Positions 8,635 through 10,898 of a DNA stretch of 26,347 nucleotides are shown here, piece after piece (position 1 is the stretch's first letter; the number at the start of each line of letters is the position of its first letter). The DNA is from a virus. Its lineage: Duplodnaviria; Caudoviricetes. The stretch is from the IMG/VR virus record IMGVR_UViG_3300027804_000199, positions 1-26,347 of that record; one strand, written 5' to 3'. A program made the translations under genes and the position numbers. The notes under the pieces are model-generated. The model was not told the DNA's origin and made no database searches. It saw nothing but the letters and a program-made list of their open reading frames with translations.

Positions 8635-10812
8635 TCAGCCCTCATTGCCATCCCATTGGCCCAGTAAATTCCACGCATTGTTCTCTGCATCTGGTGCGAA
8701 TCTTCTTAGAACTGACAGGCCAATGGAGCGTTTTACATCGCCTTTTGACGCTCCAGGCACGGCTGCATAGATCTCAGCCCAATCTAATTTGTAGGCATTC
8801 GGATGTAATCGGCAGTCCCTTGGAGCGTTTGATCCTTTGCGAATCACCACCCCTTCGGGATGTTCATTGATGATGGATTGAACGAAAGCTGCCGCCGTGT
8901 CGCACTTGTCCATGATGCGCAGTGACTTGCTGTCCTCGATTCGGGCTGCTGCTTCTTGCTTTCTGGATGCTTCGCTTGTCGGGTACGGGATGACTGTGAT
9001 GCACTGGACATCTTGAGGGTTGCCGTGACGGGTCAGGACAACCTCATTGTGGATGTGGGTCTGAAAGCTGATCTCGCGGTGGATCGGCTCATAACGGGTC
9101 TTGATGAGCCGCATGAACCTGTTCTTGTCATCATCCATGAACAGGATGGCGGTCAGGGTGGCGTCACCAGTGAAGGCACTTGCGCCACGGGCCAGAGCGC
9201 TGTCATCGTTGGTCTGAGCCGTCTTGGCGGTGTGGGTGATGATCTTTATCGGGGTGGAGAGTTGAGTGTAAATAGTCTGCTTGATGGCGGCCATATAACT
9301 GCCGACCTCAGAGTTATCATTCTCATTATCTATTTCTAATGTGGCATTAGAAGTATCTATTATGAGGAATGGCCGTTCAGTAGTTGTATGGCGTATGACA
9401 TTCTCTGCTAAGAGTAATATCTCCGGCACTTTAGACCGCTTTGATTCAATGACGATAAACCAATTGGCGACTTCAATGGGGTCGAGATTCCAGTATTTCA
9501 CATAAGCATAAAGAGATTGCCTGACTTGATTGGCATCCTCGGTGACATAAAGAATCTTTCTGCGGGACTCGGTTTTGAGTGGGGAATCGGACAGAGTAAA
9601 TCCAGCGGCAATCAGGCAGACTGAAACCATTGCCGTGGTCTTGCCCACACCAGGCTGGCCGGCGGTAACACTGAAAGAATGCGCGAGAAAGCCGTCAATT
9701 AAATATTCGACAGGGTAGAGCTTGGTCAGGTCGAGGGTCAGTTCCTTCCAGTACGGGGCTGGCTGGTCTATGGGTGTTAGCTGGTCACTGGCGACTTGAG
9801 CCTGCTGCGCTTGAATGAAGTTGGAGAAATCCTCGACTGCCGACTTTCGGTCAGCGGCTTTTGATGGTGGAGCGTAGCCACCTTGCTTTGCATGATGAAA
9901 CAGCGTGCCGATGGAGACGCCCTTGCCTTGGTGAAACGACTTCCAATGCGTGTCGATGTCCTGCTCTGACTTGTACTTAAAGCCTTGGCTGCTCCAGTTC
10001 GCCCAGAGTTGGTGGCCTTGGGCGCCAAAGGCCGTGTGCAGCGCTTGGCCAATCTCGATCCATGTCGTGTAATCGCTGTCAGGGTTGATGAAGTACAGTG
10101 CGGCTGCAGCCTTGCTGTAGTCATCGGTGGAGCTTGACAGGGTTGGCTGGTATTCCTGTTTAGGCCGCGGCACTTCAGCCGGCTGGTTAGAGTTGTCCTG
10201 CTCAATGACGCCCCACATAGTGAGCAAAGACAATAGATTGTCATGCACCTCGTTGGAGAGCTTGCCGTTGAGCTTTGAGCCGGACAGCAGCACCGACTTG
10301 CCTGGGCTTGTTGGTAGCCCAAAAACCTCTATCTCTTGGCCGCCGCCCAACTTGTACTTGGGCTTGATCTTGTCCAGATCCTCATCAGCCACGAATAGGA
10401 AGACATGCCGACCTCGTCCGGAGACGCTTACCTCCGTGAGTTGATCCTGCTGCTTGACCCACTCGGCCATGCGTTTGATGGCGATATTGGTCGCACCTGT
10501 GGAGTGCTTCATGTCCACATCGAGGCAGACAAGGTACGCGCCACTGGACATGGATGGGGTCTGCATCACGATGCCCAAATAGTTGCCGGCTGGCGCGGCA
10601 TCCATAGTCAGCACCTCTGATGCGCTGTAAAGCTGGTCAGGTGTAGTGTCACGCGCTACACCTTGGCCGGACTTCTTGTAAGGGATCTTCTTGCCATCGG
10701 CAGTGGTGGCAAAGGTGCAGAACACTGCTGATGGATGCTGCTCAATCAGCTTGACAGCAATGGCCTTTGAGTTGGTAAACTCAGTGGCCGTTGCTTTTGG
10801 TAAAATACTCAT
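8635..10812 (-). CDS. Primase-helicase fusion (Prim-Pol-like AEP + PriCT-2 + AAA_25/RepA-like helicase)
   Basis: KIPY, CLDVD, EVSVSGRGRH (AEP); DYTTWIEIGQALH...WANWS...W.SF...GTLFHHAKQGG (PriCT-2); Walker A GQPGVGKT, YVTED, IIDT, HTAK, ARGASA. Confidence 0.9.
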   Translation of the reverse strand: MSILPKATATEFTNSKAIAVKLIEQHPSAVFCTFATTADGKKIPYKKSGQGVARDTTPDQLYSASEVLTMDAAPAGNYLGIVMQTPSMSSGAYLVCLDVDMKHSTGATNIAIKRMAEWVKQQDQLTEVSVSGRGRHVFLFVADEDLDKIKPKYKLGGGQEIEVFGLPTSPGKSVLLSGSKLNGKLSNEVHDNLLSLLTMWGVIEQDNSNQPAEVPRPKQEYQPTLSSSTDDYSKAAAALYFINPDSDYTTWIEIGQALHTAFGAQGHQLWANWSSQGFKYKSEQDIDTHWKSFHQGKGVSIGTLFHHAKQGGYAPPSKAADRKSAVEDFSNFIQAQQAQVASDQLTPIDQPAPYWKELTLDLTKLYPVEYLIDGFLAHSFSVTAGQPGVGKTTAMVSVCLIAAGFTLSDSPLKTESRRKILYVTEDANQVRQSLYAYVKYWNLDPIEVANWFIVIESKRSKVPEILLLAENVIRHTTTERPFLIIDTSNATLEIDNENDNSEVGSYMAAIKQTIYTQLSTPIKIITHTAKTAQTNDDSALARGASAFTGDATLTAILFMDDDKNRFMRLIKTRYEPIHREISFQTHIHNEVVLTRHGNPQDVQCITVIPYPTSEASRKQEAAARIEDSKSLRIMDKCDTAAAFVQSIINEHPEGVVIRKGSNAPRDCRLHPNAYKLDWAEIYAAVPGASKGDVKRSIGLSVLRRFAPDAENNAWNLLGQWDGNEG
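10798..10806 (+). promoter_or_regulatory. Extended -10 promoter antisense to the primase-helicase start
   Basis: TGGTAAAAT matches TGn-TAAAAT; predicted start ~10813; no clear -35. Confidence 0.55.
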
Positions 10813-10838
10813 GTTGTTGATCTCGCGGTTGACGACAA
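10809..10838 (-). CDS. Putative 9-codon leader peptide coupled to the primase-helicase
   Basis: AAGGAG (10850-10845), 6 nt, then TTG TCG TCA ACC GCG AGA TCA ACA ACA TGA. The TGA overlaps the primase ATG (ATGA), which has no strong SD of its own. Confidence 0.5.
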   Translation of the reverse strand: MSSTARSTT

Positions 10839-10898
10839 GTTGTTCTCCTTCTGGAGTGATCCAGTTACCCCTGACAGTTCACGCTGTCAGGGGTTTTT
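10813..10898 (+). ncRNA. Putative counter-transcribed antisense RNA (~86 nt)
   Basis: Hairpin 10813-10836 (10 bp with 4 G-U pairs, so plus-strand specific), exposed UCUCCUU, hairpin 10851-10864 with a GUGA GNRA loop, then a terminator. Confidence 0.6.
10867..10898 (+). terminator. Intrinsic terminator oriented antisense to the surrounding genes
   Basis: ACCCCTGACAG-TTCACG-CTGTCAGGGGT perfect 11-bp stem followed by TTTT on the plus strand. Confidence 0.75.

Follow-up and report, generated by a model that had tools for sequence, protein, structure and literature searches.

The window analysed here, a stretch of 26,347 nucleotides, comes from a tailed phage whose replication module lies on the minus strand. 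This module contains the gene of a 725-aa primase-helicase (8635..10812, minus strand), with PriCT_2 and AAA_25 domains and an N-terminus that is a weak Prim-Pol, and, upstream of it, the gene of a C5 DNA methyltransferase (10887..12320, minus strand). Its other minus-strand genes encode an HNH nuclease, a SNF2 helicase, a Cas4-like nuclease, a VRR-NUC protein and a small resolvase; the SSB gene is on the plus strand. Between the divergent HNH and SSB genes lie an inverted repeat of 17 bp and, on the minus strand, a terminator-like hairpin (15263-15333 / 15346-15361); an alternative-frame ORF of 156 aa with no Pfam match lies inside the methyltransferase gene (11675-12145, minus strand). The resolvase is a small serine resolvase of 222 aa (6334-7100) with AT-rich DNA upstream. 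The only near-full-length annotated relative is MW202879, a complete metagenomic genome of 36 kb with 80.6% identity. No feature is annotated in its leader region; a resolvase and an RHH protein are annotated elsewhere, no integrase or ParA is, and Pfam searches on 15 ORFs added none. Among 50,697 phage records a single metagenomic genome covers the primase protein, no plasmid record covers it, all six matches in genome collections are MAG contigs, and no solved structure matches.

Conservation was assessed on loci gathered by protein searches, by a pattern scan and from one phage record. Anchoring on primase motifs worked for 220 of the 273 sequences, the 53 that were dropped being mostly unrelated pattern matches or short pieces. 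The anchored loci comprise 108 different cassettes, which fall into four clades: W, the clade of the window (30 cassettes, 77-100% identity), A1 (11), A2 (2) and A3 (65); identity is about 50-55% for A1, A2 and A3. Adding metagenome loci raised the set to 295 anchored loci and 127 distinct leaders. Because these sequences are related, with relatives spanning 50-100% protein identity, the counts given below overstate the number of independent events.

A preliminary description of this DNA had placed an extended -10 element on the plus strand, inside the first codons of the primase gene, and a transcription start near 10813. The element TGGTAAAAT does lie at 10798-10806 (plus strand): the -10 box TAAAAT (10801-10806) overlaps primase codons 3-5, a G stands at -14 (10799), and a G is found at 10813. 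The extended character of the element is less general, as its T is present in the window but varies in relatives. The box itself is constant, TAnnnT being found in the same register in 127/127 distinct leaders. Six versions of the hexamer occur in the anchored cassettes (TAAAAT, TAAACT, TAAGAT, TAGAAT, TATAGT and TATGAT), and the residues encoded under it vary (Ile-Leu, Ser-Leu, Thr-Ile, Ile-Ile); the codon that gives TA always ends in TA. In the 65 cassettes of A3, codon 4 is ATA (50), TTA (11) or CTA (4); within the gene body 12% of the Ile codons are ATA. Every cassette continues behind the box with an NCN codon, which fixes the G at -14 (108/108 cassettes), and the first purine 6-7 nt past the box, the predicted +1, is a G in 108/108 as well. 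The background frequency of TAnnnT is 0.2-0.5% per position, and only 1 of 29 other genes of the window has such a box at the equivalent position. The codon argument is weaker for the clade of the window, since in other window genes 12 of 22 N-terminal Leu codons are TTA or CTA. No -35 element is present in the window or conserved among the cassettes, and a consensus promoter scanner did not list the antisense promoter among its calls in the window. An antisense transcript is very probably made opposite the primase leader. Of seven expression runs listed, none contains half of the sequence words; in each of four of these data sets, which consist of unstranded contigs and carry no information on strand, ends or level, a piece touches the leader.

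The predicted antisense RNA would be about 88-90 nt long (10813..10902, plus strand), with its +1 G at spacer 6 or 7. Its 88-nt plus-strand sequence folds at -38.1 kcal/mol (z -4.96), a stability that 0/200 shuffles equalled. It begins with a 5′-terminal hairpin, H1 (10813..10836, plus strand), of 10 bp with four G-U pairs. The claim that H1 is stable only on the plus strand agrees with the computed energies, -9.8 kcal/mol against -3.2 on the minus strand, but taken alone the hairpin reaches only z -1.9 and 10/200 shuffles match its stability. As DNA it has only -0.6 kcal/mol, so H1 folds as RNA and not as DNA. Downstream, the anti-Shine-Dalgarno stretch UCUCCUU (10844..10850, plus strand) is unpaired in the computed fold, as had been proposed, and its CTCCTT is invariant in alignment A5. 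It is followed by a small 5-bp hairpin, H2 (10851..10864, plus strand), restricted to clade W, with a G-C/A-U compensatory change in 10/29 sequences; the GNRA loop attributed to it is there in the window (GUGA) but varies in relatives. The RNA would end in an intrinsic terminator-like hairpin (10867..10902, plus strand; stem 10867-10894, then a T-run giving the U-tract) with the loop G-UUCACG-C and z -7.1. This hairpin, which had also been recognised beforehand, folds as DNA too (-12.8 kcal/mol). In the window the methyltransferase stop codon falls within its stem, an overlap that is not kept among relatives.

Conservation of the hairpins in related phages had been set as a test of the preliminary description, and the pairs are kept across relatives. 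The alignment of 29 W sequences has 738 cells, of which 98.2% pair (97.5% for H1), a level that 0/500 shuffles attained. Clear compensatory changes in this clade affect one pair of H1, two of H2 and one of the terminator; for the terminator, several of the single counts of such changes trace to one shifted row, L030. Hairpins at +1 are found in W, A2 and A3, built from unrelated sequences. Clade A1 has only weak folds and an RNA of 63-70 nt. For the part 5′ of the terminator, the antisense strand is the more stable in 79/80 cases and the first pair is at +1 in 69/80; the sense leader is A/C-rich and the antisense strand thus G/U-rich, which folds more easily, so the strand asymmetry may be partly compositional. 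Among 50 distinct terminator hairpins, the positions that are not Watson-Crick comprise 51 antisense G-U pairs, 5 sense G-U pairs and 4 mismatches; counted as distinct clade/position events, the G-U pairs are 16 antisense versus 4 sense (p = 0.012). The terminator loop reads UUnRCG in 98/108 cassettes. Two A3 members, L127 and L128, have this loop inverted with respect to all others, as template switching at an inverted repeat would be expected to do. In a search for trans targets, no exact 9-nt complement elsewhere in the window was seen at a start codon, on inspection by eye and without a chance control.

On the coding strand, a strong Shine-Dalgarno sequence, AAGGAG (10845..10850, minus strand; duplex energy -8.1 kcal/mol), stands 6 nt before a TTG at 10838. 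As the preliminary description had noted, this TTG opens a frame of nine codons (10809..10838, minus strand; LSSTARSTT), which ends in a TGA overlapping the ATG of the primase (10812). In clade W the Shine-Dalgarno sequence of the primase ATG itself yields only -3.0 to 0 kcal/mol (-3.0 in the window), versus -8.1 for the upstream one. A start codon follows the strong Shine-Dalgarno sequence in 34/34 distinct W leaders. In 29 of them it opens the 9-codon frame with an ATGA overlap (TTG in 27, ATG in 2), and in the remaining 5 it is an ATG in the primase frame. The leader peptide occurs as SSTARSTT, SSTVRLTT, SSTAKLTT and TPTARSTT, and the positions that vary also build H1. In the centroid fold of the sense strand, the start of the primase gene stays open. 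In the other clades the arrangement differs: A1 has no leader ORF, its Shine-Dalgarno sequence serving the primase start directly; in A2 the primase start is overlapped by a frame of 15 codons; and in A3 the primase GTG is preceded by AAGGA, with an ATG of the same frame lying 27 nt further upstream. A frame of 4-5 codons in 41/80 A3 leaders was rejected as a functional leader, as its start and frame vary. In a quick tree four basal lineages do not separate clearly, and it does not show in which order the leader frame changed. The coupled leader ORF finds support in W alone and does not belong to the conserved core: it is absent in A1, an in-frame start takes its place in 5/34 W leaders, and A3 has a Shine-Dalgarno sequence of its own at the primase start. 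Coupling is plausible in W as a clade-level add-on, and we rate functional coupling through the 9-codon frame in the window's clade as slightly more likely than not.

Further upstream, a possible sense -10 box for a primase-specific transcript, TAGAAT (10913..10918, minus strand), which the preliminary description had overlooked, is found as TAGAAT or TAAAAT before an A-tract in 219/220 anchored loci and in 74/76 loci added later. This box coincides with the upstream stop codon in 78/108 cassettes and is separate from it in 28. As it lacks a conserved -35 element, a dedicated sense promoter is possible, though less certain. A C-rich stretch follows it in all clades (10906-10912, minus strand, in the window), usually without a purine at spacer 6-7, and resembles stringent-type discriminators.

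The cassette keeps its place when the genes around it change. At loci with a second, Prim-Pol-type primase it is retained in 9/9 (L363-L371), as a W-type cassette or that of another clade, either directly upstream of the primase or about 350-440 bp upstream. A small ORF is sometimes inserted between the two at these loci. In L368 and L371 a frame of 15 codons, read by eye, runs from the old start into an overlap with the ATG of the new primase. Three loci from the pattern scan (L167, L192, L243) carry a different sequence right behind the -10 box. In L192, a short locus with no Rfam gathering match, the sequence after the cassette (reverse strand) resembles a C4-type antisense/ash insert. The gene on the other side is exchanged freely: it is the methyltransferase in the window and a Cas4-like nuclease or others elsewhere. 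Since this upstream gene stops short of the RNA in 78/108 cassettes, the primase leader is the constant target.

At the opposite end of the primase gene lies a replication origin candidate (8390..8610), likewise overlooked in the preliminary description. It contains, just past the primase stop codon, two perfect matches (8392-8400 and 8512-8520) to what we take as the DnaA-box motif, and 11-bp tandem repeats (8576-8608) with inverted copies. At least two perfect DnaA boxes are present within 400 nt past the primase in 118/123 distinct relatives, and none of them has even one box in a gene-body control; the iteron-like repeats differ between clades. The order is antisense unit, leader, rep and origin candidate, a plasmid-like layout. 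The position of the latter makes the 5′ half of a 206-aa ORF (8070-8690) doubtful. The sign of the GC skew changes near 9000.

The preliminary description had read the locus as an antisense switch that sets the level of the replication protein. Of this reading, the antisense RNA is well supported by conservation in four clades, and the leader coupling proves clade-limited. We propose as the probable best explanation, from the sequences compared, an OOP-like antisense RNA of about 90 nt that pairs with the primase ribosome-binding region and limits the replication protein; that the RNA represses primase translation is, as a separate statement, also probable, by a hair less so. A host sigma-70-type polymerase would start at G10813 and stop near 10900, and the 5′ hairpin would protect the RNA. 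Pairing may be initiated by the UUnnCG loop or by the open anti-Shine-Dalgarno stretch, and the duplex would block ribosome loading, with RNase III decay possibly added. In W, ribosomes would load at the strong Shine-Dalgarno sequence, translate the 9-codon frame from its weak TTG start and then reinitiate at the ATG that overlaps its stop; if restart depends on leader translation, a blocked leader would shut the primase off, as CopA does via tap. The other clades would hit this target with no need of a leader frame. As the origin candidate follows directly behind the gene, the RNA could provide dose-dependent feedback on phage DNA replication.

Three other explanations have to be weighed. The one that survives best, although we consider it distinctly less probable, is that the antisense promoter is real and acts mainly in cis, by transcription interference or through topology like lambda pO, the RNA being a by-product. 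The activity of pO in lambda has effects on replication and on read-through from pR, and raised oop left plasmid copy number unchanged (PMC3985674). The layout is as in lambda, and the two -10 boxes, sense and antisense, face each other at a distance of about 110 nt. A by-product, however, needs neither a hairpin at +1 kept with unrelated sequences in three clades nor a conserved loop. Moreover, the -10 box is 9 nt deeper in the gene than that of lambda, so that the Shine-Dalgarno sequence is covered, and the origin candidate is 2.2 kb off.

It is improbable that the terminator alone is functional, stopping antisense read-through into the early operon, with the -10 reflecting AT-rich codons and the TTG arising by chance. 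The missing -35 element, the frequency of AT-rich Leu codons at N-termini and the modest z of H1 by itself (-1.9) would fit this explanation. Against it, six hexamers hold the TAnnnT register across Ile/Leu/Thr/Ser changes with G-14 and the +1 G fixed, the box persists at breakpoints where the gene behind is exchanged, and the leader start is an ATG in 7/34 leaders.

It is very improbable that the plus-strand hairpins are ssi-like single-stranded DNA signals that load primase, or that the RNA is a replication primer: the primase gene adjoins, G-T wobble would yield an equal strand bias, the terminator does fold as DNA (-12.8 kcal/mol) and oop was at one time proposed to act as a primer (PMC3985674), but H1 is unfolded as DNA, the cassette outlives the replacement of the primase family, and the iteron/DnaA cluster lies at the opposite end of the gene.

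On a more speculative level, these phages of about 36 kb might carry a complete R1-like replicon, made up of the antisense RNA, the leader frame, the primase-helicase, an origin of DnaA boxes and iterons, and the small resolvase. With no integrase annotated in the complete relative, they might persist as phage-plasmids in which an OOP-family RNA sets copy number and mutual exclusion, which we regard as unlikely. If it were true, OOP-type units would form an exchangeable module that controls replication in tailed phages generally, and the regulation of cII in lambda would be a special case. The role of oop in lambda replication is unsettled, as the RNA targets cII and the promoter affects replication (PMC5869508 and PMC3985674). 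An OOP-like unit that has no cII in sight, is shifted so as to reach over the Shine-Dalgarno sequence and stays constant under gene exchange offers a compact test case of 130 bp, whose natural variants (coupled leader, in-frame start, leaderless) allow the effects of the RNA and of its promoter to be told apart. A further implication is that a widespread group of uncultured phages may control replication in the manner of plasmids.

How does this unit compare with known systems? A search of Rfam had been suggested as a check, and it gave no CopA, Inc or ctRNA family in the window at E up to 5; 8 further loci, lambda, P22-type and phi80 included, gave 0 gathering matches. The sole Rfam match over the locus, NsiR1, was rejected as a terminator look-alike (24.5 bits against a cut-off of 39). 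No paper on the cassette was found in the literature searched, outside which fall most subscription papers and supplements. A covariance model built from clade W sequences alone, whose E-values are rough and whose score comes mostly from the terminator, found the correct place in 14/15 family loci (L147 was missed) and lambda oop, with 1 off-target match in 124 kb; it gave no match in four distant loci. With a P22 stretch lacking oop as negative control, it also matched the annotated oop of a P22 isolate and of phi80, and the same place in mEp043. The lambdoid matches, again scored mostly on the terminator, score 20.6-21.5 bits and lie on the correct strand, with nothing off target in 48.6 kb; four other O-like loci were unmatched.

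The likeness to lambdoid OOP lies in the layout and in the loop. In both, an antisense -10 lies over the start of a replication-region gene (CATAAT over ATTATG in lambda), and a short antisense unit ends in a terminator flanked by an A-tract. The terminator loop is G-UUGCCG-C in lambda, G-UUCCCG-C in P22, G-UUACCG-C in phi80 (M3 RNA) and G-UUCACG-C in the window; UUnnCG as the OOP-type loop is our own generalisation from four lambdoid records and not a published definition. Furthermore, ACTGGATCACTCCAGAAGGAG of the window resembles the P22 segment that precedes the P22 Shine-Dalgarno sequence. An OOP transcript was observed in prophage BTP1 (PMC7067206).

The differences are equally clear. The neighbouring gene is O in lambda and the primase-helicase here, and OOP overlaps the 3′ end of cII whereas no cII is seen upstream here. 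In lambda the -10 reaches to +3 of O, and the start of OOP lies upstream of the Shine-Dalgarno sequence of O; here the box ends at +12, and because it is 9 nt deeper in the gene, the predicted RNA would cover the Shine-Dalgarno sequence. PMC5869508 puts the OOP 5′ end at 38675, with the Shine-Dalgarno sequence of O outside the RNA. OOP lowers cII and leaves the O-P mRNA unaltered, and the pO promoter acts in cis on replication (PMC3985674). Lambda, P22-type and mEp043 have a LexA-type box, CTG-N10-CAG, which phi80 lacks and which occurs in 0/127 leaders. The unit of the window also adds a 5′ hairpin and, in its clade, the leader ORF.

Helicase genes under antisense control may offer a parallel at the IncQ plasmids R1162/RSF1010, where Kim and Meyer reportedly described in 1986 a small counter-transcript at the start of the repA helicase gene; the window would likewise have antisense control at the start of an AAA_25-type helicase, and has no Rfam match. 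One review gives IncQ in its table with no antisense system (PMC12361487). A predicted antisense RNA over the rep leader, together with a candidate coupled frame, is shared with R1 CopA/tap/repA, IncI2 AS RNA/repR/repA and ColIb-P9 Inc/repY/repZ. Such plasmid systems are treated in PMC12361487 and PMC8053102, the latter describing leader-frame coupling for R1, IncI2 and IncI1, and the origin lies right past rep here as it does in the R1 order of PMC12361487. As in CopA/tap, the leader frame overlaps the rep start and rep lacks a strong Shine-Dalgarno sequence of its own, in clade W only (29/34). Unlike there, the frame is not kept family-wide: 5/34 W leaders start in frame, A1 has none, and A3 has its own Shine-Dalgarno sequence. 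The present unit further differs from the plasmid systems in that it belongs to a tailed phage, its leader has 9 codons and is clade-specific, and the predicted RNA would cover the leader Shine-Dalgarno sequence directly. Thus, the unit stands outside OOP proper, having no cII, no O and no LexA-type box, and outside the Rfam plasmid families. In layout and loop, it is nearest to lambdoid OOP rather than to CopA or Inc, and it is likely a unit built like OOP that works like CopA.
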